DNA from: an uncultured Thermoleophilia bacterium
GTDB lineage: Bacteria > Actinomycetota > Thermoleophilia > UBA2241
Assembly (NCBI GenBank): GCA_963702475.1
Contig: CAVPCT010000003.1
Coordinates: 64,001 to 128,000, forward strand
Length of the DNA stretch: 64,000 nucleotides
Direction of reading: 5' to 3'
This document shows, in pieces, positions 26,004 through 40,759 of the stretch. The notes under the pieces were generated by a model, which saw nothing but the letters and a program-made list of their open reading frames with translations, was not told the origin of the DNA and ran no database searches. Both the position numbers and the translations under genes were made by a program. Within the stretch, counting starts at the first letter, position 1. Each line of letters starts with the position of its first letter.

Positions 26004-28784
26004 ATGTTCGGGTCGTTCACCATCGAGAGTCTGGACAGGACCGAGGAGTTCCCGCTGGCACAGGCACGGGTCGAGATCGGACGCGGTCCGGACAACGATC
26101 TCACGCTCCCGTTCCCCACGGTCTCCACCCGCCACGCGCGGGTACTCTGCGACTCGTCGGCGTGCCGCATCCTCGATCTGGGGAGCGCCAACGGGACCGC
26201 TGTCAACGGCGAGGAGCTGCCGGTCAGGGAGGAACGCCGTCTGCGGGACGGCGACGACGTGCGTATCGGCCCGTTCACGCTCGTGTTCCACACCGCTCCG
26301 GCGGAGGGCCGCGCCGCGCCGGCCGCGCGGCCGGGCCACACCGTGGTGCTCCCACCCACGCGGCCGCCGCGGCTCAGGGTGACCACTCCCGAGGGCTCGC
26401 AGGAGCTCCCGCTCCCGGCCGGCACGCTGACCCTCGGCCGGGACCCCGCTTGCGACATCGTGGCGTCCGCCGAGGCCGTGTCGCGGCGCCACGCCTCCCT
26501 GGAGCGCCGCGGCGACAAGTTGCTGGTGAGGGACCTGGGCAGCACCAACGGCATCAGCGTCGACGGCGTGCTGGTGCCCGAGAAGCTCCTCGGCGACGGT
26601 GGGCAGGTCGCCATCGGCAAGAGCGTCACGCTCACCTTCCTCGCGGCTGAGGACGTCGCGGCCGAGGCGCCGGGCTATGCGGGCTGGGCGGCCGGCGCCG
26701 AGCCTCAGGCGCAGGTCTACGACATCGGGGAAGGCCAATCGCTGCAGCTCGGCCGCGGCGCCGAGACCGTCGTGCACCTCGCCCACCCGCAGGTCTCCCA
26801 GCTGCACGCGGAGGTGAGCCGGCAGCAGGGACAGGTCGTCATCCGCGACAAGGGGAGCAGCGCCGGTACGTTCGTCAACGGGCAGCAGGTCGTCGAGCGG
26901 GTGCTGCACGAGGGTGACGTGGTGCGCATCGGTCCAAACCAGCTCGTCATCCGCGACGGTCGCCTGCAGCTGATGAGCGAGGAGGGCCGGCTCCGCCTGG
27001 ACGCCTTCCACCTCGGCAAGACCGTCGGTAAGGAGAAGAAGAAGATCCTCCGCGACATCTCGCTGTCCATCAGGCCTCAGGAGTTCGTCGCCGTGGTGGG
27101 GGGCAGCGGCGCCGGCAAGTCCACCCTGGTCACGGCGCTCTGCGGTTTCAAGCCCGCCACGGAGGGCGCCGTGCTGCTCAACGGCGCCGACCTGTACCGC
27201 AACTTCGACGCGTACCGCAACGAGATGGGCTACGTGCCGCAGGACGACATCATCCATCTCGACCTCTCGGTCCGCAAAGCGCTCGACTACGCCGCCCGCC
27301 TGCGCCTGCCGGCCGACACCACCGAGGCCGAACGGCGGCAGCGCGTGGCCGACGTGATCGACGAGCTCGACCTCAAGAGCGCCGCCGACACCACCATCCG
27401 CTCACTCAGCGGGGGGCAGCGCAAGCGCGCCTCCATCGGCGTTGAGCTGCTCACGCGGCCGAGCCTCTTCTTTCTGGACGAGGCCACGTCGGGTCTGGAC
27501 CCGGCCACCGAGAGCCAGATGATGAAGCTCCTGCGCAAGCTGGCCGACCAGGGGCGCACCATCATCCTCATCACGCACGCCACCAAGAACGTGATGGTGT
27601 GCGACAAGGTCTGCTTCCTGGCGCGCGGCGGCTACCTGGCCTTCTTCGGCCCGCCGGAGGATGCGCTCGCCTACTTCGGCGTCAAGGACTTCGACGAGAT
27701 CTACGAGCGCATCGAGGCGGGCGCCACGCCCGAGGAGTGGGCGGCGCGGTACCTGCGCTCCCGGGAGTGCCAGGACAACGTCGTCACGCCGCTCACCGAG
27801 GTGGCCAAGGCGTGGACGCAGCCCGGCGGCGCGACCGGCGGCGGGGACGGGCGCGGGACCGCCGCGCCACTCGCCGCCGCCCCCGGCGCCAAGGTGCGCG
27901 CGACCTCCGGCTGGGACCAGTTCCTCATCCTCTCCAGCCGGTACCTGCGCATCGTCATGAGCGACAAGAAGACGCTGATCCTCCTGCTCGCGATCTCGCC
28001 GGTGCTCTGCATGATCGACTTCATCACGTGGAAGAACGACCTCTTCGACCCGGTCACGGGCAGCGCGAGCAAGGCCGTCACGATGCTGTTCATGGCGTGC
28101 ATCATCGGCGTGCTCGTAGGGACGATCACGTCGGTGCGGGAGATCGTCAAGGAGGACGCGATCTACAGGCGCGAGCGCATGGTGTGCGTCAAGGTGTTCC
28201 CCTACGTCATGTCCAAGATCGCCGTGGGCTCCATCTTCGCCCTCTACAGCGCTGTGGTCCTGTGGGGGTTCAAGATGCTCGCCGTCGACTTCAGTCATCT
28301 GAGCCTGACCGGGTATCTCAGCCTGCTGTTCACCTTCGTGCTGGTGACGTTCGCGGGTCTCATGTGGGGCCTGCTCGTCTCCGCCGTGGCTCCGACCGAA
28401 GACAGAGCCATGCTGCTCGTCATCCTCGTCCTGGTCCCGCAGTTCATGTTCGCCGGGGGCATGCTCCCGATGGCCGACCTCGGTTTCTTCGGCAAGGCCA
28501 TGGGCGCGGTCACGTCCACGCGCTGGGGGCTCGGCGCACTGGCCACGATCGCCGAGGTCAAGACCGGAGCCGGCGAGGCGGCGGACATGTCCGACGTGTC
28601 GATGCCCGGACTCCAGGGCCTGGGCTCTGTGGGTGAGAAGGTGGCGCTGGTCAGAAGCCTGGACACGCAGTACGGCGCCATCTTCAACGTCAACGTCGGC
28701 TTCTACTGGCTGATGTCGCTGGTCCTGATCCTGGGCCTGGTCGGCATCATCTTCGTGCTCCAGAAACGAAAAGACACGCTGTGA
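26004..28784 (+). CDS. FHA-domain ABC transporter (Rv1747-like; 3xFHA + NBD + ABC-2 TMD)
   Basis: Three FHA signatures (IGR..VSTRHA..DLGSANGT; LGR..VSRRHA..DLGSTNG; LGR..VSQLHA..DKGSSAGT); GGSGAGKST; LSGGQRKR; LDEATSGLD; TM region. Confidence 0.93.
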   Translation: MFGSFTIESLDRTEEFPLAQARVEIGRGPDNDLTLPFPTVSTRHARVLCDSSACRILDLGSANGTAVNGEELPVREERRLRDGDDVRIGPFTLVFHTAPAEGRAAPAARPGHTVVLPPTRPPRLRVTTPEGSQELPLPAGTLTLGRDPACDIVASAEAVSRRHASLERRGDKLLVRDLGSTNGISVDGVLVPEKLLGDGGQVAIGKSVTLTFLAAEDVAAEAPGYAGWAAGAEPQAQVYDIGEGQSLQLGRGAETVVHLAHPQVSQLHAEVSRQQGQVVIRDKGSSAGTFVNGQQVVERVLHEGDVVRIGPNQLVIRDGRLQLMSEEGRLRLDAFHLGKTVGKEKKKILRDISLSIRPQEFVAVVGGSGAGKSTLVTALCGFKPATEGAVLLNGADLYRNFDAYRNEMGYVPQDDIIHLDLSVRKALDYAARLRLPADTTEAERRQRVADVIDELDLKSAADTTIRSLSGGQRKRASIGVELLTRPSLFFLDEATSGLDPATESQMMKLLRKLADQGRTIILITHATKNVMVCDKVCFLARGGYLAFFGPPEDALAYFGVKDFDEIYERIEAGATPEEWAARYLRSRECQDNVVTPLTEVAKAWTQPGGATGGGDGRGTAAPLAAAPGAKVRATSGWDQFLILSSRYLRIVMSDKKTLILLLAISPVLCMIDFITWKNDLFDPVTGSASKAVTMLFMACIIGVLVGTITSVREIVKEDAIYRRERMVCVKVFPYVMSKIAVGSIFALYSAVVLWGFKMLAVDFSHLSLTGYLSLLFTFVLVTFAGLMWGLLVSAVAPTEDRAMLLVILVLVPQFMFAGGMLPMADLGFFGKAMGAVTSTRWGLGALATIAEVKTGAGEAADMSDVSMPGLQGLGSVGEKVALVRSLDTQYGAIFNVNVGFYWLMSLVLILGLVGIIFVLQKRKDTL

Positions 28785-28920: not shown

Positions 28921-31335
28921 GTGGAACGAGCCGAAGAGCTTGTCGGGCGGTCGCTGGGGCGCTACAGGATCACGGCCCTCGTGGGCAAGGGCGGCATGGC
29001 GACGGTGTACAAGGCCACGCACCCGGGTCTCGGCCAGACCGTGGCCATCAAAGTGCTGCATCCGCACATGGCCACCGATCCGGACATGCTGGGCCGCTTC
29101 CACAACGAGGCACAGGCGGTGGCCAACCTCCGCCATCCCAACATCGTGCGCGTTCTCGACTTCGACGTACAGGGCGACCAGTACTTCATGGTCATGGAGT
29201 TCGTCGACGGGCCGACCCTCGCGACGCAGCTCAGCGGGTTCGCCTCGCAGGGGCGGAACATGCCGGCCGGCGAGGTCGCGCGCATCCTCGAGCCGCTGTG
29301 CTCCGCCGTGGACTACGCCCACGGGCAAGGCATGATCCACCGTGACATCAAGCCGTCGAACGTGCTCCTCACCCCGCAGGGGGAGCCCGTGCTCACCGAC
29401 TACGGTATCGCCAAGATGGTGGGCGTCACGCAGCACACGGCCACCGGCACGGTGATGGGCTCCGCCTACTACATGTCGCCGGAGCAGGCGCAGGGGAGCG
29501 GCATCGACGGCCGCACCGATATCTACTCGCTCGGTGTGATGCTCTTCGAGATGCTCGCCGGGCGCGTTCCGTACGAAGGCGACACGCTGGCGACAGTGCT
29601 GGTCAAGCACATCACCGCGCCGGTGCCCCCGGTGTGCACCTACAACAGCCAGCTCCCGCCGCTGCTGGACAACGTGATGGACGTCGCGCTGGCCAAGGAT
29701 CCCGCCCAGCGCTTCCAGACCGGGGCGGCTCTGGCGGTCGCGTTGCGGCAGGGGCTCGCGGCGCCGGCGGCAGCGGCCGGTACGACGACCTTTGAGCGGG
29801 GCGCGGCGGCGGGCGGCGCCACCACCGTGGAGCCCGCCCGGGGCGCCGCCGGCCAGACCGCCGCGGAGGCGCTGGCGGCGCGCACAGCGACGCGCGACGT
29901 GTACATCAGCTACGCGCCGCAAGACAAGGCCGCCGCCGAGGCGGTCTGTGCCCGGCTCGAGGCCGAAGAAGTCACGTGCTGGATCGCGCCGCGCGACGTG
30001 CTGCCGGGCCGCACCTTCGCGCAGTCGCTGAGCAGCGCCATCCACGCGGCACGCGTGTTCGTGCTCGTGTTCTCGGCGGCCACCAACGAGTCGCAGCAGG
30101 TCGAACGGGAGCTTCACATGGCCGACGTGTCGCGGCTGCCGGTGGTGCCCCTGCGGGTGCAGGACGTGCAGCCGCACGAGTCGATCGAGTACTACCTGGC
30201 CGGGCGGGCCTGGGTCGAGGCGTCCGGCCCGCCGCTCGACGCCCACCTGGGCCGGCTCGTGGAGAACGTGTCGCTTCTGCTGCTCCAGGCGCCGCCCCGG
30301 CAGCCAGGCTCTGCCGCCGTCGTGACCACGTTCGAGCCGGCCCCGAGCGCCCGCGCCGTGACCGGCGCGGAGCCTCCGCCGGCCGCCGAAGAGCCGGCGC
30401 TGCCTCCGGCGCAGTCCGCGGCTGCGCCTGCTCCGGCGGCGACCGTCGCTCAGCCGGCGCCGCCGGCCGTCGCCCCCGCGGTGCCCGTGACAGTCTCCTC
30501 GGCTGCTGCCGTCGAGCCCACGCCGCCGGCCGCGGAATCCGCGCCGGCCGCTGAACCGGAGCTGTCGCCCGCGGCCGAGACGACCGGTGAGCCTGCGGCG
30601 GTCGAACCCGCACCGCCCGCGGTCGAACCCGCACCGCCCCTCATCGTGCCGCCGGCCGCTGAGGCCGCCGTGTACGCCGAGACCACCGTCGAGCCAGGCC
30701 CCGCGTCGGCCGCGCCCGCGGGCGCCGCAGTCGGCGCCGCCGTCGGTGTGGCGGCCGCGGCAGGCGCCGTCACCGAGGAGGCAGGAGCTCCGGCTGTTGA
30801 AGTGGCTGTGACCGTCGCCGCCGTAAAGCCTGCACCGCCCGCCGCCGAGGATCTTGCCGGACCGGCCGCAGAAGCAGCTGCTTCTGCTGTCACGGAGCCG
30901 GCGGCGAAAGCGCACGAGCAAGAGCTCGCGCCTGCCAGCCCGGCCCCCACCACCGTCGAGCCGCCATCAACGGGCGCCGCTGCGACCACCGTCGAGCCGC
31001 GTCCTCCGGCCGGCGCCGCTGCGACCACCGTCGAGCCGCCATCAACGGGCGCCGCTGCGACCACCGTCGAGCCGCGTCCTCCGGCCGGCGCCGCTGCGAC
31101 CACTCTCGAGCCGCCGCCCGGCGCCGCGGCTGCGACCGCCTACGAGGCGCCGGCCGCGGCCGGCGCGCCGGCGGCGGTCGTGCAACCTGCTCCGGGTGTG
31201 CCCTCGCAGCCGGGGGCCGGTCCCGAGGCGCCCGGCCTGCCGACCAGGTTCCAGACGCGTGCCGTTGCAGCAGCAGCCGCCGTGGGCGTGGCCTGGGTGG
31301 TCATCCTGTTCGTGCTCGAGAAGTACGTGCTGTAG
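28921..31335 (+). CDS. Hanks-type Ser/Thr kinase with a TIR domain, Pro/Ala/Thr-rich repeat region and C-terminal TM helix
   Basis: GKGGMATVY, VAIK, HRDIKPSN, DYG, YMSPEQ; TIR_2-like DVYISY..DK...CWIAPRDV.PG...S.QVEREL; C-terminal hydrophobic anchor. Confidence 0.92.
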   Translation: MERAEELVGRSLGRYRITALVGKGGMATVYKATHPGLGQTVAIKVLHPHMATDPDMLGRFHNEAQAVANLRHPNIVRVLDFDVQGDQYFMVMEFVDGPTLATQLSGFASQGRNMPAGEVARILEPLCSAVDYAHGQGMIHRDIKPSNVLLTPQGEPVLTDYGIAKMVGVTQHTATGTVMGSAYYMSPEQAQGSGIDGRTDIYSLGVMLFEMLAGRVPYEGDTLATVLVKHITAPVPPVCTYNSQLPPLLDNVMDVALAKDPAQRFQTGAALAVALRQGLAAPAAAAGTTTFERGAAAGGATTVEPARGAAGQTAAEALAARTATRDVYISYAPQDKAAAEAVCARLEAEEVTCWIAPRDVLPGRTFAQSLSSAIHAARVFVLVFSAATNESQQVERELHMADVSRLPVVPLRVQDVQPHESIEYYLAGRAWVEASGPPLDAHLGRLVENVSLLLLQAPPRQPGSAAVVTTFEPAPSARAVTGAEPPPAAEEPALPPAQSAAAPAPAATVAQPAPPAVAPAVPVTVSSAAAVEPTPPAAESAPAAEPELSPAAETTGEPAAVEPAPPAVEPAPPLIVPPAAEAAVYAETTVEPGPASAAPAGAAVGAAVGVAAAAGAVTEEAGAPAVEVAVTVAAVKPAPPAAEDLAGPAAEAAASAVTEPAAKAHEQELAPASPAPTTVEPPSTGAAATTVEPRPPAGAAATTVEPPSTGAAATTVEPRPPAGAAATTLEPPPGAAAATAYEAPAAAGAPAAVVQPAPGVPSQPGAGPEAPGLPTRFQTRAVAAAAAVGVAWVVILFVLEKYVL
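30949..31115 (+). repeat. Coding tandem repeat: two exact 75-bp copies (36+39 bp subunits) plus a partial copy
   Basis: ACCACCGTCGAGCCGCCATCAACGGGCGCCGCTGCG / ACCACCGTCGAGCCGCGTCCTCCGGCCGGCGCCGCTGCG at 30949-31023 and 31024-31098; encodes TTVEPPSTGAAA-TTVEPRPPAGAAA. Confidence 0.9.
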
Positions 31336-31413: not shown

Positions 31414-32697
31414 TCAGGCCGTCCGCGCCCCGCCGCGTCCCAGCGACGGCGCCGCCAGCGTGAGCGCCACGATCACCACGTCGACCGCGAGCGCAGCGAG
31501 CACGTACGTTGAGCCGTCGAGCGTGCCGAAGTACGAGAGTGCGAACACGGCCGCGGTGGCCACGCCGACCACCGCGCCGACACCGGCGAGAGGCACGGCG
31601 AGCGGGCCGCGCGGACGTGTGGCCGCGGCCCGCAGCACGGCGAACGTCTGTACGGCGAACAACACGCCGCCACCGATGAGCACGAGCCAGGAGAGCCAGT
31701 CGTCGCTCGCGCCGCCGTCGATCCCGCCGCCTCCGCCGTCCGCCATGTCGCGGACGGTGTCCAGGTTGGCCGCCGCCGCCGCGGCCACACCCGGCGCTTC
31801 AGAGGTCTTGAGGCCGGCAAGCTTGTCTTCGGCCGCGGCAGTGTCGCCCTCTTCGGCCGCGACCAGCGCCAGGCCCATCTCCGCGTAGTCGTTCTGCTGC
31901 ACGTCTCTGGATCTCGTGAAGTCGGCCTTGGCCGCCGCCGCGTCGCCCCGCTCCAGTTCGTTCATCCCGCGCTGGTAGTGGGCCGCCGCGAGGTTCGCCG
32001 TCACGGCGTCGGCCAGCGCCTGGTCGGGCTCGCCGTCCGCCGGAGGCTGGTCGGGAGCGATGGCGTCCTGTGCCTTCTGCAGCGTCACGATGCCGGCGTC
32101 GTAGTCGCCCTGGGCGCACTGCACGACGCCCAGGGCGACGTCGGTCTTCACGCTCGGCTGCACGGCGGCCGACTGCTCCAGGTCGGCCTGCGCCTGCGCG
32201 TAGTCGCCGCCGGCCGCTTCGATCAGCCCGAGGTTGTAGTACGCCGACGCCTCCACCGTCTTGCCGTTCTTGGTCGCCGGAGCGTCCGTGGCCTTGCGCG
32301 TGGAAGGCTCGCCGGCCGCGGGCTCGCCCTTGAGGATGAAGCCGGCGCCGACGTTGAGGTCGGCCCCGCGGTACTTGGCGTTGAGCTTCAGCACCTTCTC
32401 GAGCAGGCCATCGGCCTTGGCGTACTCCCCGCTCCGCAGGTAACAGACGGCGAGGTTGTTGAGGGCGTCGGTGTCGCCGGGCTCGAGCTTGACGGCGAGC
32501 TTGAACAGCTTGGTGGCCTCGGCGACGTCGCCAGCCTCCAGCGCCTTGCAGCCCAGGTTGTACGGGTGGGTCTTGGCGGCCGCCGCCGGACCGGCGGCGG
32601 CGAGCAGGCAGGCGAGCACCACCGCGACCAGCAGGCAGACCTCCGTCACGCGGCGACGTGAGGCGGTGGGGCGCCGGAGTGGACGGGCGGTGTACAT
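31414..32697 (-). CDS. Secreted/membrane-anchored tetratricopeptide repeat protein
   Basis: Signal peptide (..AGPAAA|A); TPR motifs ALNNLAVCY, AYYNLGLI, AHYQRG; three C-terminal TM helices; starts 1 nt after the precursor stop. Confidence 0.85.
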   Translation of the reverse strand: MYTARPLRRPTASRRRVTEVCLLVAVVLACLLAAAGPAAAAKTHPYNLGCKALEAGDVAEATKLFKLAVKLEPGDTDALNNLAVCYLRSGEYAKADGLLEKVLKLNAKYRGADLNVGAGFILKGEPAAGEPSTRKATDAPATKNGKTVEASAYYNLGLIEAAGGDYAQAQADLEQSAAVQPSVKTDVALGVVQCAQGDYDAGIVTLQKAQDAIAPDQPPADGEPDQALADAVTANLAAAHYQRGMNELERGDAAAAKADFTRSRDVQQNDYAEMGLALVAAEEGDTAAAEDKLAGLKTSEAPGVAAAAAANLDTVRDMADGGGGGIDGGASDDWLSWLVLIGGGVLFAVQTFAVLRAAATRPRGPLAVPLAGVGAVVGVATAAVFALSYFGTLDGSTYVLAALAVDVVIVALTLAAPSLGRGGARTA

Positions 32698-32698
32698 G

Positions 32699-33256
32699 TC
32701 AGAACGGCTCCGCCTGGCAGGAGCAGGGCGAGTCGCCCTCGCACGTGCACGAGGACACGCCCTGGCACGTGCACACGGCGTTGCACGAGCACGTGCCTCC
32801 CCCGCCCCCCGAGTCAGCTACGCAGCTGCAGGCATCCACGGCCTCACAGGTGCACACCTGGTTGCAGGTGCAGACCAGGTTGCAGGTGCAGACGGTGCCG
32901 CCGAAGGCGTCCTTTCCGGTCAGCCGGGTCCTGGTGGTGTGGGCGCGCGTCACCTTGCCCGGCTTGTCGGTCTTCTCGGGCTTCTTCGTCGGCCCCGACG
33001 TCTTGCGCGAGGGGTCGGCGGGGGCGACGAAGGTGTCGGGATCGGGGTAGGCGTACTCGGGCTCAGGGGCGCTCCACTTGAGGACCCTGGGCGGCTCGGG
33101 CGACCCGGAGGACTCGCCGAAGAACGACTCGACAGGCGCCGGCGATTCGCCCAGCAGGTCGTCGGGCGCCGATTCGCCGGCGCGCAGGGCAGCCCACTCG
33201 ACGGTGGCTTCCTCGCTCTCGTAGATGGACAGCTCGGGAGGCTCGTAGTCGCTCAT
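32699..33256 (-). CDS. Cys-rich putative RiPP precursor (YxxPxL leader; 8 C-[TS]-C motifs)
   Basis: MSDYEPPEL start; core VCTCNLVCTCNQVCTCEAVDACSC..GTCSCNAVCTCQGVSSCTCEGDSPCSCQAEPF; ATGA overlap with the rSAM stop; RBS GGAGGAGG. Confidence 0.8.
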   Translation of the reverse strand: MSDYEPPELSIYESEEATVEWAALRAGESAPDDLLGESPAPVESFFGESSGSPEPPRVLKWSAPEPEYAYPDPDTFVAPADPSRKTSGPTKKPEKTDKPGKVTRAHTTRTRLTGKDAFGGTVCTCNLVCTCNQVCTCEAVDACSCVADSGGGGGTCSCNAVCTCQGVSSCTCEGDSPCSCQAEPF

Positions 33257-34620
33257 CGCATGGCCTCCTCCAGCTGGTCGAGAGTGAGAGCGCGGTTGAT
33301 CTCACAGCGCCCGACCACCGCTTCGTCGGCGCCGGCGAACAGCCGTTTCGAGGGGCAGTCGCCGGCGCAGTGATACTTGGCGAAGCAGCGGGCGCAGCGC
33401 GGCGCCTCGTCGACAGTGAGGCGCCGCAGCGCGGCGACGCGCGCAGGGTCGAAGGCGAACGAGCGCGTCGCCGCGTCGTGCCGGCCGTAGATGAAGACGC
33501 CGGCACGCGGGTCGTCGCGGCCGGTGATCTCGTAGCAGGCCGTGACGTCGCCCTCGGTGGTGACGTTGAAGCTCGGCAAGCTGACCTGGCAGAAGGTGTG
33601 GCACAGGGAGCTCTGCCGCGCGCCGGAGTAGGCGAGCTCCACACCGGCTTCGGCCGCTGCCTCACAGCACTCGCGGTACACCCGTACGAAGCGCTCGGGC
33701 GAGGGCGGGCGCAGTCCGTTCTGCAGGGAGCGGCCGCACTGGAACAGCGGCTCCAGGTGCACCGTGTGGATGCGGTGGTCAGCGGTCAGCTGCCGCACTG
33801 TGCCGGCGGCGTGCTCCAGCGCCTCGTCGGTGCAGGTGAGGCGCACGCCGAGCGTCACCTCGCTGGCGGAGAGGCGTGCCAGCGTGCGCGTGACCTCCGG
33901 CCACGAGGGGCCACCGCCGGGCCGCGGCCGCAAGCGGTCCTGGACTTCCGGCGGCCCGTCCACGGAGACCATCACCGACGTCATGGTCTCCGCGAGGAAG
34001 TCGCGCATGGCGTCGTCCATGACGCCGTTGGTGGCCGTGCCCGTGCGCAGCCCCAGGCCGTTCTCCTCGCTCAGGCGCTGCGCCCGGCGCACGCAGCGTC
34101 TCAGCGTGTCGCCCGCAAGGGTGGGCTCGCCGCCGCCGTGGAACGACACGCGCACGTCGTCCAGGCCTCGGGCGGCGGCGTTGGCCACGACGAGGTCCAC
34201 GGCGTCGATGGCCACGCCGGGGTCGAGGAAGCGGTCGCGCTCGCCCCCTGAGGCGTAGCAGTAGACGCAGCGCAGGTTGCAGGCGCTGGTGAGGAAGAGC
34301 GTGACGGCGGTGGGGGCGACCGTGGCCGGGCCGTCGGCGTCCGCGGCACCCGGCCCGCTCGCGGGCTTGGGCGCTGAGGTCGTGACCCCGGTCGGGGTCC
34401 CGGCCGGCGCCGTCTCGATGAGCGACAGCTCCGCGAGGAGGTCGAGGACCTCGCGGCCGGACGCGTCGGGGGTGACGGCGCGCTCGGCGGCAATGGCGGA
34501 GAGCAGGCCGAGGCACGCGTCGTTGACGACCAGGCTTGTCCGCAGGAGCGGCGCGTAGACGAGGTGCCCCTCGTCGCGGGGGAGCGAGAACACCTCGGTG
34601 GTGAACCGGTAGGTGGTCAC
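33253..34620 (-). CDS. Radical SAM/SPASM domain peptide maturase
   Basis: CNLRCVYC (CxxxCxxC), FHGGGEPTL, TNG, SVDG; SPASM FC..GDVTAC...CARCFAKYHCAGDC..C; N-terminal RRE-like extension. Confidence 0.93.
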   Translation of the reverse strand: MTTYRFTTEVFSLPRDEGHLVYAPLLRTSLVVNDACLGLLSAIAAERAVTPDASGREVLDLLAELSLIETAPAGTPTGVTTSAPKPASGPGAADADGPATVAPTAVTLFLTSACNLRCVYCYASGGERDRFLDPGVAIDAVDLVVANAAARGLDDVRVSFHGGGEPTLAGDTLRRCVRRAQRLSEENGLGLRTGTATNGVMDDAMRDFLAETMTSVMVSVDGPPEVQDRLRPRPGGGPSWPEVTRTLARLSASEVTLGVRLTCTDEALEHAAGTVRQLTADHRIHTVHLEPLFQCGRSLQNGLRPPSPERFVRVYRECCEAAAEAGVELAYSGARQSSLCHTFCQVSLPSFNVTTEGDVTACYEITGRDDPRAGVFIYGRHDAATRSFAFDPARVAALRRLTVDEAPRCARCFAKYHCAGDCPSKRLFAGADEAVVGRCEINRALTLDQLEEAMR

Positions 34621-35057
34621 GACCGCCGGACCTCGTCCGCAGGCTGGGCGCCGGGCACGCCGTCGACCAGACCCTGCGCCGCGAGAGTGCGCAGGCAGGC
34701 GAGTGTGTCGCGCCGCGCAGCCTCGGCGGACAGACCGAAGGCGGCGGCGAGCTCGCCGGCGATCTCGCCGGCGCTGCGCCGCCCGTCCACGGCCTTCCAG
34801 ACCACGGCCCCGGACCTGTTGAGCGTGAACACAGGCCCGTGCGGGTCGATCGGCGTCGGCAGCAGCCGAAGCCCGTCCGGCGCCGCGCGCTCGGCGAGGT
34901 TCTGGGCGCGGCGCGGACGCGCATCGCCGGGCTCAGACCGGCGCAGGCTGCGGCGCCAGCCGGCGCCGGCGAGCGCTGCGGCCAGCATGCAGCCGCCCGC
35001 CACGAGAAAGGTCCGTCTGGTGCTCCCCCTGCTCGCACGCTCAGAACCGGCGGCCAT
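34617..35057 (-). CDS. PqqD family protein / RiPP recognition element with an N-terminal twin-arginine signal
   Basis: FTLNRSGAVVWKAVDGRRSAGEIAGELAAAF...ARRDTLACLRTLAAQGLV is the PqqD pattern; N-terminal TRRTFL plus hydrophobic core; RBS GGAGG; GTGA overlap with the rSAM gene. Confidence 0.88.
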   Translation of the reverse strand: MAAGSERASRGSTRRTFLVAGGCMLAAALAGAGWRRSLRRSEPGDARPRRAQNLAERAAPDGLRLLPTPIDPHGPVFTLNRSGAVVWKAVDGRRSAGEIAGELAAAFGLSAEAARRDTLACLRTLAAQGLVDGVPGAQPADEVRRS

Positions 35058-35260
35058 GGCTCCCTCCGGGCTCCGTGGGAGGGCGGCGTCATCCGCCCTC
35101 TGGGTCAATCGTGTCCCCTGCCTTCTCGTTCGTCAAGGAAAGCCGCCGGCTTTGCGTTACTGAGTGATTGACAGACGCGAGGGATGGCGTAGAACGGGTA
35201 TGGAAAGAGAGTGGACGGGGACGCGGCGCCTCGGCGTCGCCGGGCAACGGAGGGTGCACG

Positions 35261-36649
35261 ATGGCTGACGTGGTCTGGAAGGTTCATGCGCTCCGGACCG
35301 GAGGACGGCTGCGGCCGGACCGGACCCCGGCGCGGGTGCTCGCGCTGCTTGTCGCGGCCGTGCTCGCGGTCCTGCTCCTGTGCGCCTCGGCCGTCACGGC
35401 GGCTGGCACGAGCGCCGTTCCGAGCAGTGGCGTCGCCCCCCGCGCGGCCGAGGCGCCGCTCACGCTCGCGCCGTGGCTCGCCGCCGCCCCGGCCGTCGCA
35501 GCGGCTCGCGGGGCGCCGTCGACGCAGACGCTCTTCTCCGACGACTTCGAGTCCGGTCTCGCCAAGTGGCGCCTGCTCGGCAGCCCCGGCTGGAGCGGCA
35601 CGACCTACCGCGCCGCTGCCGGGACCTCCTCCGCCTACTGCGCCGGGACCGCGATCAGCCCGCCGGGGCCCTACGCGAACAACATGAGTGCGTGGATGAT
35701 CGCCGGTCCGTTCGACCTCTCCAAAGCCACCGCCGCGACCCTGAGCGCCAAGCTCTACTTCGTCACTGAGGCGAGCAAGGACCTGGTGAACCTGTACGTC
35801 TCCGTCGACAACGCGGACTTCTACGGGACCGGCTGGTCGGGGAACGGCGCCGCCTGGAACGACAAGAGCCTCGACCTGACCAACGTGTACACGCTGGGCA
35901 ACGTGTGCGGCAAGAGCCAGGTCTGGATCGCGGTCATGTTCAAGAGCGACCCGGCCGTGGTCTACGAGGGCGCCTACGCCGACAACGTCGTCCTCACCGC
36001 GACCATGCCGGGGACGGGGCAGAAGGAGGCGGGCCTGGTGCTCACCTCCGACGCCGAGACCGTGCCGTACGACGGGTCCACCAACCTCGTCGGAGCCCTG
36101 CTGGACGCCACCAGCGGCTTCCTGGTCCCCGACAAGGAGGTCGGTCTCTTCTGGTCCCAGGAGAACAAGATCGACGGCGAGTGGAACTACGCGGGCTCGG
36201 ACTCGTCGACCACCGGCAACTACGAGGTCAGGGCCACCGGCATCACGCGGACCACGTACTTCGCCATGTTCTTCGACGGCGACAGCGAGTATCTCTCGAC
36301 GATGAGCAATCTCGTGAAGGTGGTCGCGCGAGCGAAGATCACCCCGCCGGCTGTGCCCAAGGTCATCCAGGCGGGCAGGCTCGTGACGAGCTGGGGCACG
36401 ATCCTGCCGAAGCACACGACGGCGCAGAACCGTTCGAGCCACACCAAGGTGTACCTGGAGCGCTACTATGGCGGCAGATGGCACGCCGTGACCAGTCTGT
36501 ACGCGCAGAAGTACCGGAGCACCAAGAACGCTACCGAGTACGCCGTGAGTCTGCACTACCACGCCGGCTCGTGGCGCCTGAAGGCCGTGCACCAGGACGA
36601 CGACCACGCCAAGTCGACGTCGTCCTGGAGGACGTTCACCGCTCGCTGA
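35261..36649 (+). CDS. Secreted protein: jelly-roll (immune inhibitor A/MAM-like) domain + C-terminal Ig-like module
   Basis: Signal peptide; LFSDDFESG..W, Y.NN..AWM..GPFDLS, F.SD.....EGAY.DNV; beta-rich C-terminus. Start codon uncertain. Confidence 0.75.
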   Translation: MADVVWKVHALRTGGRLRPDRTPARVLALLVAAVLAVLLLCASAVTAAGTSAVPSSGVAPRAAEAPLTLAPWLAAAPAVAAARGAPSTQTLFSDDFESGLAKWRLLGSPGWSGTTYRAAAGTSSAYCAGTAISPPGPYANNMSAWMIAGPFDLSKATAATLSAKLYFVTEASKDLVNLYVSVDNADFYGTGWSGNGAAWNDKSLDLTNVYTLGNVCGKSQVWIAVMFKSDPAVVYEGAYADNVVLTATMPGTGQKEAGLVLTSDAETVPYDGSTNLVGALLDATSGFLVPDKEVGLFWSQENKIDGEWNYAGSDSSTTGNYEVRATGITRTTYFAMFFDGDSEYLSTMSNLVKVVARAKITPPAVPKVIQAGRLVTSWGTILPKHTTAQNRSSHTKVYLERYYGGRWHAVTSLYAQKYRSTKNATEYAVSLHYHAGSWRLKAVHQDDDHAKSTSSWRTFTAR

Positions 36650-36725: not shown

Positions 36726-38234
36726 TCAGCGACGCCAGAACGCCGGCGTGAGCATCAGCATCAGCGTCACCAGCTCCAGCCGTCCGGCGAGCATATCGAA
36801 CATCAGCGTCAGCTTGGCGGCCGGCGCCATCCACAGGTAATTGTCCATGGGGCCGACATCCCCGAGGCCCGGCCCCACACCTCCCATGGCGGTGGCCGCC
36901 GCCGAGAGCGCCGTGGCGAAGTCCACCCCCGTGAGCGAGACGATGCTCACGGAGACCACGTAGACCGCCAGATACAAGCCCATGAAGGCCGATACCGAGC
37001 GCATCATCTCGTTGGTCACCACGCCGCCGTTGAGGCGCAGCTTGGTGACGCTGTACGGGTGCATGGTGCGGAAGAACTCGTGCGCGGCCTGCTTGCCGAA
37101 GAGCAGCACACGGATCACCTTCATGGCGCCGGCTGTCGATCCGGCGCAACCGCCCATGAACAGCAGCAGGAAGAGAATGAACTGCGCCGCCGGGAGCCAC
37201 TTCTCGTAGTCGGCCGTCACGAAGCCGGTCGTGGACGCCAGCGAGACGACCGTGAAGAAGGCGTCGCGGATCGCCTGGTTCGCCGAGACCGTGGAGGTGG
37301 CCCAGACGAGGGCGGCGATGAAGAAGCTCGAGCAGACGAGGACGGCGGTGTAGAAGCGCCATTCGGCGTCCCTGAAGAAGCGTCCAGGCTTGCCGGTGGC
37401 GAGGAACCAGTACAGGGAGAAGTTGGTCGAGGAGAGCCACAGGAACAGGACGATCACCCAGTCGATGTATGCGCTGTGCCACCAGCCGATGCTCGTGTTC
37501 CTGGTCGAGAAGCCGCCGGTGCCTATGGCCCCGAACATCTGGCACAGAGCGTCGTACCAGTCCATGCCGCCCAGGAGGAGCAGGATCGTGAGCGAGACCG
37601 ACAGGGTCAGGTAGATCGTCCAGAGGATCCGCGCCGTGCTGCTGATGCGCGGACGAAGGCGGTCCACCTCAAGGCCCGGCGCCTCGGCGCGATAGAGCTG
37701 CATGGCGCCGATGCCCAGCAACGGCAGCAGGGCGACGAACGAGACCAGGAAGCCCATGGCCCCCAGCCAGTGGGTGAAACAGCGCCAGAAGAGCAGCCCC
37801 CGGGGCATGGCCTCAACATCGGGGATCACGCTCGCCCCCGTACCCGTGAACCCGCTGGTCGTCTCGAACCAGGCGTTGAGCGGCCCGAGCTGTCCTTCGA
37901 GCACGAAAGGTATCGAGCCGATCACGCACACCATGAGCCAGCCCAGCGCCACGACGGCGATGCCGTCGTGGCGCGTGAGGCCCCGCAGGTCGGTGCGGAA
38001 GGCGACCAGGCCGATCGCTCCAAGGGCGCCCGCTGCGAACATGGTGGTGGCGAACGACTCGATGTCACGGCCGTCCCCGTAGAAGATGGCCACGGCCAGG
38101 GGCGCCGCCATGGCGGCCGTCTCGCCGAGCAGCAGGATGCTGAGCAGATAGGCGACGCGCCGCGCCCCGCCCACCGTGGCCGGGTGCAGGCCGGTCACGG
38201 TGGCGAGTACGGACGGCGCGGGCTGGGCAGCCAT
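36726..38234 (-). CDS. trkH: TrkH potassium uptake membrane protein
   Basis: FETTSGFTGTGAS, GTGGFS, STTGF, GGCAGSTAGAMK, GGVGPG, GRLE motifs; ATG at 38234. Confidence 0.95.
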   Translation of the reverse strand: MAAQPAPSVLATVTGLHPATVGGARRVAYLLSILLLGETAAMAAPLAVAIFYGDGRDIESFATTMFAAGALGAIGLVAFRTDLRGLTRHDGIAVVALGWLMVCVIGSIPFVLEGQLGPLNAWFETTSGFTGTGASVIPDVEAMPRGLLFWRCFTHWLGAMGFLVSFVALLPLLGIGAMQLYRAEAPGLEVDRLRPRISSTARILWTIYLTLSVSLTILLLLGGMDWYDALCQMFGAIGTGGFSTRNTSIGWWHSAYIDWVIVLFLWLSSTNFSLYWFLATGKPGRFFRDAEWRFYTAVLVCSSFFIAALVWATSTVSANQAIRDAFFTVVSLASTTGFVTADYEKWLPAAQFILFLLLFMGGCAGSTAGAMKVIRVLLFGKQAAHEFFRTMHPYSVTKLRLNGGVVTNEMMRSVSAFMGLYLAVYVVSVSIVSLTGVDFATALSAAATAMGGVGPGLGDVGPMDNYLWMAPAAKLTLMFDMLAGRLELVTLMLMLTPAFWRR

Positions 38235-38245
38235 GCCGGGGCGGC

Positions 38246-39592
38246 TCAGGCGGGGGCCAGCAGGCGCTGCAGGCGCGGGATCAGGGCGGGACGCGTGAAC
38301 AGGATGACCTGGTCGCCTGCCTCGATCACCGTCGAGCCACGCGGCATGATCACCTCGCGCCCGCGGACCACCGCGCCGACCAGCGACCCGTGCGGCAGGT
38401 GCAGGAGCGCCAGGGGCAGGCCGACGATGCCCGACCCCTCCGCGGCCACGAACTCGATGCCCTCCACGAGATTCTCGCGGAGGGTGCGGATGGTCAGCAC
38501 CTGCCCTTGCCGGGCCAGCTGGATGATGGGGCTGAGCGCTGCGAGGAGGGGGCTGAGCACCACGTCCACGCCGATGCTCGAGGCGAACGGCATGTACTCG
38601 GGCGTGTCCACGAGGGCGGCGGCGCGGCGCACGCCCAGCCGTTTGGCGAGGAGCGCCGCGAACACGTTGGCCGTCTCGTCGCCGAGCGCGGCGATCGACA
38701 GATCGGCGCGCTGCACGCCCTCGTCGACCAGCAGCCGCTCGTCCATGCCGTGACCCTGCAGCACGAGCGTGCTGTCGAGCGCGCTGGAGATCCGCTCGCA
38801 CACGGCAGGATCGCGCTCGATGATCTTGGTGTGGATGCCCTCGGCGGCCAGGCGGCGGGCGATGGACACGCCTTCCCACCCGCCGCCGGTGATGATGACG
38901 TTGCGCGTGCGCACCCAACGCTTGCCCAGACGCGTGAGGGCCGGTCGCACCGAGTCGCGGTCGGCGACGAGGAACAGGGTGTCGCCGGCCATCAGGCGGA
39001 TGTCGTCCGACGGCGCGCTGACCATCTCCCTGCGATAGATGCCGGCCACGAGCAGCTTCTCGCCGTCGCGGGACAACGCTTTGATGGGTTTGCCGATCAG
39101 CGGCGAGTCGTCGTCCAGCTCGACGCCGACCGCCTGGACCCGGCCGCCGGCGAAGTCGAGCACGTCGGTGGCGCCGGGTACCCGCGCCAGGGCGACGGCG
39201 GCGCGTGCCACCTCCTCCTCCGGACTGATCACCAGGTCCACACTCAGCGAGCTCTGGTCGATGATGCCGCTGGCGCCGAGGTAGGCGGGATCGTGGATGC
39301 GGGCCACGCGGACGATCCGCCCGGACACGGTCTCGGCGATCAGGCAGGCCACGATGTTGGTCTCGTCGCTGCCGGTCACGGCCACCAGGACATCGGCCGC
39401 GCGCAGCCCGGCGTCGAGCAGCACCGACGGCGTGCTGCCTTTGCCGACCACCGCGCCCACGTCCATCGCGTCCTGGGCGCGGCGCAGGGCGTCCTCGTCC
39501 TCGCCGACCAGGACGACGTCGTGCCGCTCCTCGGAGAGCCTCTGGGCGACGGAGATGCCCAGCGTGCCCGTGCCGACGACCAGGATCCTCAC
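38246..39592 (-). CDS. trkA: Trk system potassium uptake protein TrkA (two RCK units)
   Basis: MRILVVGTGTLG, AVTGSDETNIVAC, second ITGGG unit; adjacent to trkH. Confidence 0.93.
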   Translation of the reverse strand: MRILVVGTGTLGISVAQRLSEERHDVVLVGEDEDALRRAQDAMDVGAVVGKGSTPSVLLDAGLRAADVLVAVTGSDETNIVACLIAETVSGRIVRVARIHDPAYLGASGIIDQSSLSVDLVISPEEEVARAAVALARVPGATDVLDFAGGRVQAVGVELDDDSPLIGKPIKALSRDGEKLLVAGIYRREMVSAPSDDIRLMAGDTLFLVADRDSVRPALTRLGKRWVRTRNVIITGGGWEGVSIARRLAAEGIHTKIIERDPAVCERISSALDSTLVLQGHGMDERLLVDEGVQRADLSIAALGDETANVFAALLAKRLGVRRAAALVDTPEYMPFASSIGVDVVLSPLLAALSPIIQLARQGQVLTIRTLRENLVEGIEFVAAEGSGIVGLPLALLHLPHGSLVGAVVRGREVIMPRGSTVIEAGDQVILFTRPALIPRLQRLLAPA

Positions 39593-39602
39593 GGCGCTCG
39601 CC

Positions 39603-40334
39603 TCAGTCCTCGCGCCGCGGCGCGCGCTCGCCGGTCACGTCGATGGTGGCCTGCGCCTGTACCTCTTCGGGCCGGCGGCTCGGCAGGAAGATGCGGATGA
39701 GGTCCCGCTCGCGGCCCGGCGGGGTGAGGCAGAGCACCTGGTCGCCGGGCAGCAGCTCCTCGTCGCCGCGAGGGAGCAGGGCGCCGCCCTCGCGGAGCAG
39801 TGCGGCCAGCAGCACGCCGGACGGCAGACGCAGCTCGCCGACGCTCAGGTGAGCGGCGGGGGAGTCGTCGCTCACCTCGATCTCGACCAGCTCGAGCCCC
39901 TCGTGCTTCAACGACAGCAACGGGACGAACTGGTGCGCCGGGAGGGCGTGCTGGATCATCGAGACCGTCATCGTCGTCGCGCACAGCGTCGACTGGACTC
40001 CGAACAGGTCGAAGGTGCGCTGGTTGCGCGGGTTGTTGACACGGGCCACCACCTTGGGCACGTGGTACTCGTGTCTGGCCAGCTCGGCGATGACAAGATT
40101 GTCCTCGTCGTCACCGGTCACCGCGACCACGAGGTCGGCGCGGGCGATGCCGGCCTTCTCGAGCACCCACATCTCGGTGCCGTCCCCGAACAGCAGCCGT
40201 TCCTCGAGCTCGGGCCGCAGCAGGTCGTACCGGGAGCGGCGCTGCTCCACGATGAGGTACTCGTGCCCGAGCTTGCCGAGGCTGATCCCGACATTGGACC
40301 CGACCTTGCCGCCGCCGATGATGAGCACGAACAC
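39603..40334 (-). CDS. TrkA family (single RCK-N + RCK-C) protein
   Basis: VFVLIIGGGKVG, GDGTE..LEKAGI, VTGDDEDNL, VVARVNNPRN, TrkA-C domain. Confidence 0.9.
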   Translation of the reverse strand: MFVLIIGGGKVGSNVGISLGKLGHEYLIVEQRRSRYDLLRPELEERLLFGDGTEMWVLEKAGIARADLVVAVTGDDEDNLVIAELARHEYHVPKVVARVNNPRNQRTFDLFGVQSTLCATTMTVSMIQHALPAHQFVPLLSLKHEGLELVEIEVSDDSPAAHLSVGELRLPSGVLLAALLREGGALLPRGDEELLPGDQVLCLTPPGRERDLIRIFLPSRRPEEVQAQATIDVTGERAPRRED

Positions 40335-40336
40335 GG

Positions 40337-40759
40337 TCAGTCCTCGGTCTCGGGCTGGGGGCAGGCATGAATGGCGTCTACCAGACTCATCTCTGCGTCC
40401 TGGGTGGGGCACACCGTGCGCAGACCCATGCGCGCGAACGCCTTGGCGCGGCGCGGGTCGTACACGCGGGCCACGGCGCACGGTACCTCGAACGCGCGCT
40501 GGGCGATGAGCCCGCAGACGATGTTGGTGTTGTCGCCGTCGGTCACCGCCGCGAACGCGTCGGCGCCCTCGATGCCGGCCTTGCGCAGCACGTCCCAGTC
40601 GATGGCGGCTCCCACCACGCGGTGGCCGGGGAAGTCGTCGCCGAGCAGTGCGAACGAGCGGCGGTCGTCGTCGATCACCACAACGTCGTGGCCTTCACCC
40701 GCAAGGCGTCTCGCCACAGTTGAGCCGACCCGCCCGCATCCCGCGATGATCACGTACAT
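40337..40759 (-). CDS. TrkA-N (RCK-N only) protein
   Basis: MYVIIAGCGRVG, AGIEGADAFAAVTDGDNTN, ARVYDPRRA. Confidence 0.9.
   Translation of the reverse strand: MYVIIAGCGRVGSTVARRLAGEGHDVVVIDDDRRSFALLGDDFPGHRVVGAAIDWDVLRKAGIEGADAFAAVTDGDNTNIVCGLIAQRAFEVPCAVARVYDPRRAKAFARMGLRTVCPTQDAEMSLVDAIHACPQPETED

Follow-up and report, generated by a model that had tools for sequence, protein, structure and literature searches.

Gene Content and Organization of the Locus

Four genes on the minus strand of the window (the whole stretch of 64,000 nucleotides analysed here) form a conserved set whose order is a signal-bearing RRE, a CteB-like rSAM/SPASM enzyme, a ~185-aa C-x-C protein and a TPR protein. The signal-bearing PqqD/RRE gene (34617..35057, stop codon included; 146 aa) was delimited by its ORF, by an ATG with a ribosome site, by a match to Pfam PF05402 and by 37 homologues of ~146 aa. 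Its stop codon is overlapped by the start of the maturase gene (33253..34620; 455 aa; ORF, profile and structure matches), and the maturase stop is in turn overlapped by the ATG of the presumed substrate, a 185-aa protein without signal peptide (32699..33256; ORF, homologue alignment and hydropathy). The TPR protein (31414..32697; 427 aa; ORF, Pfam and homologues) has signal-like residues 17–38 followed by A-A-A-A-K, and three C-terminal hydrophobic segments (334–421), predicted from sequence as membrane segments with short cytoplasmic loops between them. We do not read the N-terminus of the TPR protein as a Tat signal, since RR is not conserved there (e.g., a single Arg in L004); it has a Sec-type look.

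The four genes are also found together in seven further Actinomycetota MAGs and on two distant metagenome contigs, and this genome itself contains a second copy of the set; the signal-bearing TPR protein is kept in close and distant loci alike. At all four metagenome loci that encode a signal-bearing RRE, an rSAM gene follows directly downstream, and both contigs that extend further carry a C-x-C precursor. A search with the precursor profile across a sample of 401 Actinomycetota genomes returned only this genome, with two copies.

Neither a pump nor a peptidase lies inside the conserved gene set. An FHA-ABC-2 transporter, which could be the exporter, is encoded two genes beyond the operon, and a full-length orthologue adjoins the operon in three of five related genomes; the gene was not found near the operon in the other two, at the paralogous locus or on the distant contigs. 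The genome encodes Tat machinery, i.e., TatC (223 bits) and two TatA/B proteins (64 and 59 bits), as well as T-R-R-Q-[LIV]-L motifs that are candidate Tat signals of lipoproteins.

A Conserved Twin-Arginine-Type N-Terminus

The longest reading of the RRE frame (34617..35108) begins at a TTG and gives 163 aa, and the ATG at 35057 gives 146 aa. A GGAGG ribosome-binding site, read from the sequence, lies 5 nt upstream of this ATG (35063..35067, minus strand). The RR codons (35013–35018) lie downstream of either candidate start, and the single in-frame ATG between them and the domain is situated within the hydrophobic stretch. A true start downstream of RR, which the initial annotation had raised against its own reading, is thus not what the ATG and its ribosome site indicate. 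The 23-residue string quoted in that annotation corresponds to residues 12–34 of the 146-aa protein.

The signal-like N-terminus (residues 1–34; 34956..35057, minus strand), delimited by sequence and by conservation in homologues, comprises an n-region with S-T-R-R-T-F-L at residues 12–18, a match to the [ST]-R-R-x-F-L consensus, and an h-region of 19 uncharged, Gly/Ala-rich residues (16–34; mean Kyte-Doolittle 1.6) directly followed by Arg. Among close homologues (37, at 47–80% identity), 34 include the N-terminal region, and in these T13, R14 and F17 are constant, residues 1–12 and the hydrophobic core being variable. T-R-[RK]-x-F-L is present in each of the 33 full-length close homologues analysed, as RR in 12 and as RK in 21. 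Farther out, RR stands at the aligned position in 17 of 18 distant cluster representatives (25–42% identity), a set drawn from profile matches aligning from the N-terminus, a choice that favours motif-bearing sequences; the remaining N-terminus has diverged. Conservation of RR itself, proposed earlier as a check, therefore stands for the distant members but only in part for the close ones, and RK variants of Tat signals are transported less well than RR.

The uncharged stretch has a median length of 16 residues in the close group and 17 in the distant group, with Arg or Lys on both sides and hydropathy medians of 1.8–2.07 in the family. It contains Pro or at least three Gly in 28/33 close and 12/18 distant members, and its shape appears signal-like rather than membrane-span-like. 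In 23/33 close and 8/18 distant members, more positive charge follows the stretch on its C-terminal side than precedes it on the N-terminal side, so that the positive-inside rule does not favour an N-in/C-out arrangement; these charges would fit a Tat “Sec-avoidance” c-region and, equally, a cytoplasmic C-terminal domain. The suggestion of an uncleaved anchor, drawn from the basic residues that follow the h-region, lapses because a Tat c-region would account for them just as well. Some distant members, in which Pro/Gly breaks are followed by small-x-small sites, have a cleavable look. Within the close family there is no clear conserved A-x-A site, and the A-L-A-G of the window protein is not kept there.

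Dedicated Tat-signal models are almost silent. Pfam TAT_signal (PF10518) matched one of the 37 members (E 0.11) and TIGR01409 likewise one (E 0.081), the window protein being matched by neither; both are short models, and HMMER filters drop weak matches. Two other readings of this region were rejected. A-G-G-C in the h-region was considered as a lipobox, but the Cys is absent from the A-V-A-G-G subgroup and would be preceded by just six uncharged residues. The segment A-R-P-R-R-A-x-N-L that follows the hydrophobic stretch was considered as a special linker or second RR motif; it is read as the domain's first strand, because a P-x-R-x-x-x-[LV] start is also found in the signal-less PqqD proteins P0114, P0116, P0168 and P0235. 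Judged by sequence comparison, the twin-arginine-type signal is real, lies in the translated part of the gene and is conserved far outside the close family.

A Stand-Alone PqqD-Fold RRE

The domain that follows (residues 46–133; 34659..34922, minus strand), placed by Pfam, an AF2 model and Foldseek, matches PF05402 (PqqD) at 49.5 bits against a cut-off of 23.4 (E 5.5e-13), as do all 37 close family members. It begins at the conserved R-P-R-R-A-x-N-L strand, and AF2 models residues 41–130 at pLDDT 83–97 as a winged-helix fold (strands 54–59, 62–67 and 77–80; helices 81–89, 96–107 and 111–127), the pLDDT of the fold being above 90. The top Foldseek matches are leader-bound TbiB1, lasso B1 and PqqD. 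Specifically, the best is the lasso-peptide RRE TbiB1 (E 8.6e-5, TM 0.79 normalised to the target), the TbiB1 entries 5v1u/5v1v reach target-normalised TM 0.77–0.81 with rmsd 2.5–3.0 over 85–87 columns, and PqqD 5sxy is matched at E 1.3e-3. The named NCBIfam PqqD-type equivalogs (PQQ PqqD, lasso PqqD, GeoRSP, ScmD) yield at best 26.2 bits, against cut-offs of 46–100.

The protein is a genuine stand-alone PqqD-fold RRE, which may bind the leader of its precursor. Complex prediction of RRE residues 40–146 with precursor leader residues 1–122 scored 0.32, 0.28 and 0.29, the mark being 0.32; run without controls, it speaks neither for nor against binding. The description in the initial annotation of a Tat consensus plus h-region fused to a stand-alone RRE is borne out by the motif, the 19-residue h-region, the PF05402 match and the AF2 fold.

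The Maturase and Its Presumed Substrate

The maturase has a radical SAM domain (PF04055, E 4.9e-14). Among solved structures, the closest to it in sequence is CteB (5wgg, E 8e-19; residues 104–426 against CteB 97–420), and its best NCBIfam match is PapB (E 1.7e-33); all named NCBIfam equivalogs (PapB, SCIFF ScfB, CefB and others) fall far below cut-off, e.g., PapB at 116 bits against 340 and SCIFF at 94 against 425. It has the features of a thioether-forming rSAM/SPASM enzyme of the CteB/PapB kind, namely a radical SAM core, SPASM-type Cys motifs towards the C-terminus and, at the other end, an apparent RRE. For the last of these, residues 1–70 are modelled as four strands and two helices (pLDDT 76–89), and the structural alignment to CteB (VIA; Z 23.6) runs from end to end (model 7–455 against chain 1–448, 374 aligned), enzymes without an N-terminal RRE aligning to the model only from about residue 100. 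By contrast, hhalign of the maturase N-terminus (8 sequences) against the signal-bearing RRE family found no similarity (probability 0.6%), and the fused RRE is thus a claim from structure. The maturase appears to have its own N-terminal RRE, as had been proposed from the sequence, with the structural side of that proposal upheld and the sequence-profile side not.

The 185-aa protein combines an acidic N-terminus carrying two conserved P-E-L-type motifs, a Lys-rich middle, D-A-F-G-G and a core of C-T-C-[ND]-x-V repeats, with ~20 Cys in all. Neither Pfam nor NCBIfam gave a match, and ESM Atlas gave no usable one. Its most hydrophobic 19-residue window scores 1.12 and lies inside the core, compared with 1.6 for RRE residues 16–34, and the most hydrophobic 15-residue window among 55 leaders has a mean of just 0.97. 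By these predictions the signal is on the RRE only and the cargo is without any signal.

A Model for Export and Its Alternatives

We propose that the RRE may carry the finished, signal-less, Cys-rich product out of the cell. The rSAM/SPASM enzyme, with its own fused RRE, would act in the cytoplasm on the 185-aa protein and crosslink its repeat core (C-x-C/[ND]-x-x-C), as the enzyme's family resemblance suggests. The stand-alone RRE would then bind one conserved leader motif of the 185-aa protein, and Tat would export the RRE in its folded state together with the crosslinked product bound to it, in a MelC1-like manner; it is because the signal sits on the RRE alone that Tat would export an RRE-bound product. 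Once across the membrane, the product would be taken or retained by the TPR protein, which has a signal and a membrane anchor. The model builds on a signal-like sequence that is deeply conserved, on the RRE fold, the conserved gene set, the signal-less cargo and the Tat genes. Against it stand Lys at the second position in 21/33 close members, the near silence of the Tat HMMs and the flank charges, none of which supports hitch-hiking cleanly. Such hitch-hiking is the best-fitting model, which we favour tentatively and at somewhat less than an even chance. A further division of recognition between the two RREs is possible but doubtful: the maturase-fused RRE would read one P-E-L-type motif for catalysis, and the stand-alone RRE would read the other as a Tat export adaptor, bringing the folded, signal-less product with its thioether crosslinks to the TPR receptor.

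The N-terminal segment might instead be a tether that keeps the RRE on the cytoplasmic side of the membrane (N-out/C-in, peripheral or re-entrant), where the rSAM enzyme would mature the substrate beside the TPR protein and the RRE would never cross. Such a location would suit the normal behaviour of RREs, which are cytoplasmic and act with cytoplasmic rSAM enzymes, and it draws on the often more positive C-terminal flank, on the near silence of the Tat-signal HMMs and on a TPR partner whose three C-terminal membrane segments are joined by short cytoplasmic loops. Yet a plain anchor gives no reason for T-R-R-x-F-L to be kept across 25–42% identity, and N-out insertion must move an n-region containing RR and more basic residues besides (net charge as high as +7, seen in P0193 and P0199). 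The uncharged stretch, moreover, is just 15–16 residues in 9/18 distant members, short for a membrane span, and several members have Pro in mid-stretch. We regard the tether as rather unlikely. Even less expected is a segment with no targeting role at all (a docking peptide for the RRE fused to the maturase, or an element that serves assembly or stability), its Tat likeness having arisen by chance in an Arg/Ala/Gly-rich proteome. High-GC proteomes do yield many RR-plus-hydrophobic stretches (84 matches in a loose screen of this genome), and AF2 confidence for the segment is low (pLDDT 51–58). However, the strict [ST]-R-R-x-F-L with a hydrophobic stretch occurred in our screen of this genome only in gene 34617–35057 and its paralogue, and the motif is also kept in lower-GC, Lys-rich relatives (e.g., P0193, P0199 and P0227), which makes a chance likeness very improbable.

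The RRE could also be exported alone, by Tat or Sec, and once outside hold the leader of a product that leaves otherwise (e.g., through FHA-ABC-2), present it to the TPR protein or aid leader removal. The signal features would be identical to those required by hitch-hiking, the extracytoplasmic TPR partner is conserved, the maturase's own RRE could suffice for catalysis, and the window and three of the five related genomes have the full-length FHA-ABC-2 orthologue adjoining the operon. What makes this unlikely, in our estimation, is that the transporter gene is missing from the other loci named above, that the conserved system includes no other exporter and that the cargo itself is signal-less.

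Implications of a Possible Export Signal on a Recognition Element

RREs are seen as cytoplasmic docking modules, and the accepted exits for modified peptides are dedicated pumps and, in rare cases, Sec, by way of a signal that the precursor itself carries. If hitch-hiking is true, an export signal on an RRE would be a third exit route for modified peptides, one that couples export to completed recognition and that would suit products too crosslinked for Sec—bulky macrocycles being poor Sec substrates according to PMC11626156. It would then represent the first natural rSAM-modified ribosomal product to hitch-hike on its own recognition element, in a family that reaches past Actinomycetota. An RR signal joined to a PqqD domain would, in that case, be a genome-mining marker for exported Cys-rich rSAM products of unknown function and a possible tool for Tat-based secretion of modified peptides. 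No report of an RRE with a Tat signal came to light in our literature search, its matches on PqqD plus twin-arginine seeming unrelated by title and beginning of abstract; engineered Tat display is only speculated upon in PMC5686179.

Comparison with Known Systems

The RRE resembles PqqD-family RREs (PqqD of PQQ, TbiB1 of the lasso B1 type) in its PF05402 match, its three-strand/three-helix fold and its position as a stand-alone gene directly upstream of a peptide-modifying rSAM. It differs from them in its conserved twin-arginine-type signal of ~35 residues (131 of the 150 nearest cluster representatives are without such an N-terminus), in scoring below all curated NCBIfam PqqD-type cut-offs and in having an rSAM partner that already has an RRE-like domain. 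The maturase aligns end to end with CteB of the CteB/CteA (SCIFF) pair, including the N-terminal RRE region, and has PapB as its best NCBIfam match; the repeated [ND]-x-x-C spacing of the core recalls the substrates of NxxcB, in which Cys is linked to the Asn beta-carbon (PMC9389541, excerpt). Unlike CteB, PapB and NxxcB, this system has a maturase that scores far below the cut-offs of the named NCBIfam models, has a ~185-aa substrate with ~20 Cys, and conserves an additional signal-bearing RRE and a TPR membrane protein.

For the proposed export route, the nearest parallel is MelC1/MelC2 of Streptomyces, in which a helper with a Tat signal carries a signal-less tyrosinase out and co-export has been demonstrated (PMC2758597, excerpt). 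Both systems are actinobacterial and pair an upstream gene for a small binding protein with a Tat signal with a downstream partner that has none; however, MelC1 is a copper chaperone of unrelated fold whose cargo is an enzyme, whereas here the pair would be an RRE and a crosslinked Cys-rich protein, for which co-export is inferred. In the E. coli hitch-hiker PaoABC, too, the signal of one subunit serves signal-less partners (PMC4273604, excerpt), but complexes of this type are cofactor-containing redox enzymes with no RiPP recognition element. Bufferins, which are RiPP metallophores, are likewise large, Cys-bearing ribosomal products that are modified in the cytoplasm, act outside and leave by general export rather than by a dedicated pump (PMC11626156, excerpt). 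The word “Tat” occurs zero times in the text of that paper, which describes a Sec signal on the precursor and MNIO thiooxazole chemistry, in contrast to the signal on the RRE and the rSAM/SPASM chemistry predicted here.

Twin-Arginine Motif of the RRE Protein

The initial annotation had placed a Tat-type signal, fused to a stand-alone RRE, at the N-terminus of the PqqD protein (hereafter RRE), and both gene model and fold bear this out. The ORF as listed runs from a TTG start (34617..35108, minus strand; 163 aa), and the ATG at 35057 (minus strand), 5 nt downstream of a GGAGG ribosome site (35063–35067), gives a 146-aa product whose N-terminus resembles the homologues' gene calls. Both starts lie upstream of the Arg-Arg codons (35013–35018, read on the minus strand), so the motif falls within the translated gene; the 23-residue string highlighted earlier corresponds to residues 12–34, and the single in-frame ATG between motif and folded domain sits within the hydrophobic stretch. 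The PqqD/RRE domain (residues 46–133; PF05402, E 5.5e-13, 49.5 bits vs. a cut-off of 23.4) is modeled by AF2 with pLDDT >90 as three strands and three helices. Its best Foldseek match is the leader-bound lasso RRE TbiB1 (E 8.6e-5, target-normalised TM 0.79, rmsd 2.8 across 85 columns), with lasso B1 6jx3 and PqqD 5sxy also among the top matches. The N-terminal helix (residues 15–37) is a low-confidence part of the model (pLDDT 51–58).

Conservation of the Arg pair was complete in neither group of homologues. A search of 5.8 billion proteins yielded 37 close homologues (47–80% identity, nearly all 144–149 aa), of which 34 carry the N-terminal region in the alignment; of the remaining three, one is devoid of it and two have gene calls that begin within the hydrophobic stretch. 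T13, R14, and F17 are conserved in this family, residues 1–12 and the hydrophobic core are variable, and the 33 full-length sequences analysed read RR in 12 cases but RK in 21. Among distant relatives (2912 matches at E up to 1e-3 when 1.84 billion cluster representatives were searched by profile), a basic pair plus hydrophobic stretch occurs on ~19 of the best 150; the screen flagged 18, one being a false positive inside the domain, and two canonical cases with a motif ending in Lys escaped it. In the 18 aligned with the window protein (25–42% identity)—a set picked for profile matches starting near the N-terminus and hence biased toward motif-bearing sequences—R14 is invariant and R15 is present in 17, the exception reading R-G-R. 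Despite this bias, the query profile was mostly RK at the pair, yet the distant matches have RR, and lower-GC relatives retain textbook forms (e.g., D-R-R-Q-F-I-K, P-R-R-T-F-L-K).

A Recurrent Four-Gene Operon

A compact run of four minus-strand genes begins with RRE. The start of an rSAM/SPASM enzyme (34620–33253) overlaps its stop, the ATG of a 185-aa Cys-rich protein (33256–32699) overlaps the rSAM stop, and a 427-aa TPR protein (32697–31414) is fourth. Of eight loci found in GTDB species genomes (MAGs of Thermoleophilia or of other Actinomycetota), seven share this order and one is an unrelated PqqD. At one compared locus (L006, 6261–7844) the MAG has a broken rSAM frame of three overlapping ORFs, the result either of a frameshift or of an assembly error. 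In the window's own genome, all four genes recur ~170 kb away, outside the window, as a diverged second copy (C3:266267–269974; L012 8271–11974) that encodes a signal-bearing RRE, a 486-aa rSAM, a Cys-rich protein ending C-T-C-N-L-I-S-M, and a TPR membrane protein; this copy resembles the cluster representative P0102.

A metagenome scan seeded by four distant signal-bearing RREs gave 18 loci, four with a signal-bearing RRE and, in all four, an rSAM directly downstream; the other 14 held ordinary PqqD genes or were without the motif. On the longer contigs (L014, L015) a signal-less C-T-C-D-L-V-C-T-C-type protein follows, plus further rSAM genes; last on L015 is a TPR protein that bears a signal. 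These distant versions (L015 7302–10270, L014 3602–4492) carry a second rSAM, and L015 additionally encodes a B12-binding one, which suggests that a larger core, with 26–27 Cys, is modified further. The system is rare: of 401 Actinomycetota genomes sampled, only the window's own was matched by the precursor profile.

Presumed Precursor and Maturase

The Cys-rich protein matched no known family in Pfam, NCBIfam, or the ESM Atlas, and has 58 homologues. Two conserved P-E-L-type leader motifs (N-terminal Y-E-P-P-E-L-S-I-Y-E, then P-D-P-E-L-F-V-A-P) are accompanied by a conserved stretch rich in Lys, by L-T-G-x-D-A-F-G-G, and by a C-T-C-[ND]-x-V-C-T-C repeat core; distant precursors retain a K-P-E-M-E-L-Y-V-A-Q-type motif. 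It has no signal peptide: across 55 leaders, mean hydropathy over 15 residues never exceeds 0.97. An invariant D-A-F-G-[GA] immediately before the core looks like a double-glycine-type processing site; no C39 peptidase was found near the gene. The [ND]-x-x-C spacing is reminiscent of substrates of NxxcB and PapB (PMC9389541), a resemblance only.

The rSAM resembles maturases that form thioethers or cyclophanes, PapB (E 1.7e-33) among them, with scores well under the family cut-offs throughout; its best solved-structure match is the thioether maturase CteB (5wgg; E 8e-19, residues 104–426 to 97–420). The initial annotation gave this enzyme an apparent N-terminal RRE-like domain of its own, a proposal supported by structure but not by sequence. 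In the AF2 model (pLDDT 74.5) the N-terminal unit has four strands and two helices (pLDDT 76–89), and VIA-align matches model residues 7–455 to CteB 1–448 (Z 23.6, rmsd 5.2, 374 aligned) and 1–455 to TigE 4–465, with anSME and ChlB aligning only from about residue 100; the predicted fused RRE thus has good but not final support, because these ranges give first and last aligned residues only. Sequence profile comparison of the rSAM N-terminus with the RRE family found no similarity.

Signal or Anchor, and a Proposed Route of Export

The uncharged stretch of RRE has a median length of 16 residues in the close group and 17 in the distant group (15–16 in 9 of 18 distant members), with Arg or Lys at both bounds, and contains Pro or at least three Gly in 28/33 close and 12/18 distant members. 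Small-x-small sites follow it in some distant members; the alignment of close homologues held no A-x-A site conserved across the family. Mean hydropathy is 1.6 in the window protein, as against 1.04–1.38 for candidate Tat lipoprotein signals and 2.3–3.3 for other N-terminal hydrophobic segments, Sec- or anchor-like in look, in a screen of the same genome; the family median, however, is 2.07. TatC and two TatA/B proteins are encoded in that genome, and among the 37 close members Pfam TAT_signal and TIGR01409 find one weak match apiece. Judged from sequence, the short stretch, its Pro/Gly content, the small-x-small sites, the hydropathy, and the Tat genes point to a signal; the scant Tat-model matches, the flank charges given below, and the missing A-x-A conservation are neutral or speak against one.

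We tentatively favor Tat hitch-hiking, in which RRE would act as carrier of the signal-less Cys-rich cargo, as the model fitting all of these features: the signal is on RRE only and the enzyme has a putative second RRE, the cargo is signal-less and predicted to be heavily crosslinked, the TPR partner is conserved and probably extracytoplasmic, and no pump or peptidase occurs within the conserved four-gene set. It also agrees with bulky macrocycles being poor Sec substrates, as stated in PMC11626156. An uncleaved anchor had earlier been read from the basic residues after the h-region, a feature that proves non-specific because a Tat c-region is also basic there. Tethering of RRE at the cytoplasmic face, which we consider rather unlikely, would leave its C-terminal domain in the cytoplasm and give a C-terminal flank more positive than the N-terminal one, as seen in 23/33 close and 8/18 distant members; such a flank is equally expected of a Tat "Sec-avoidance" c-region. 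Export of RRE alone is unlikely, and a non-targeting role for its N-terminus highly improbable.

The TPR protein's N-terminal hydrophobic segment ends A-A-A-A-K, ahead of a conserved H-P-Y-N-x-G-C, and three further hydrophobic segments lie C-terminally; its RR is not conserved, which makes Sec export, placing the TPR domain outside, the probable route. Downstream and convergent are a Ser/Thr kinase–TIR fusion (28921–31335, plus strand; 804 aa; TIR PF13676, E 3.9e-19) and an FHA-ABC-2 fusion (26004–28784, plus strand; 926 aa; three FHA domains, ABC ATPase, ABC-2 membrane domain). The kinase–TIR protein also has an extended repeat region rich in Ala and Pro and ends in a hydrophobic tail; judged by antisense reading frames, a kinase gene seems to hold the same position in several related loci. 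Three of five related genomes have a full-length FHA-ABC-2 orthologue abutting the operon; two lack it, as do the paralogous locus and the distant contigs. This transporter is a possible exporter for the window copy and is outside the conserved system. On the other side, a divergent 493-aa protein (35168–36649, plus strand; N-terminal hydrophobic segment, weak InhA-like MAM match at E 1.4e-4, below cut-off) is not a conserved upstream neighbour of the operon at other loci, and a minus-strand run of ORFs (36726–40861; a large membrane protein and several NAD-binding-like proteins) looks, by translations alone, like a Trk/Ktr-type potassium uptake system.

Comparison With Known Systems

Among the matches listed from open-literature main texts, we found no PqqD/RRE protein described as bearing a Tat signal, nor any RiPP described as naturally exported by Tat. 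RRE, Tat hitch-hiking, and rSAM/SPASM crosslinking are each known as components; their combination appears to be new. With RRE as carrier, the proposed route would mirror MelC1/MelC2 of Streptomyces, as that pair is portrayed in PMC2758597.
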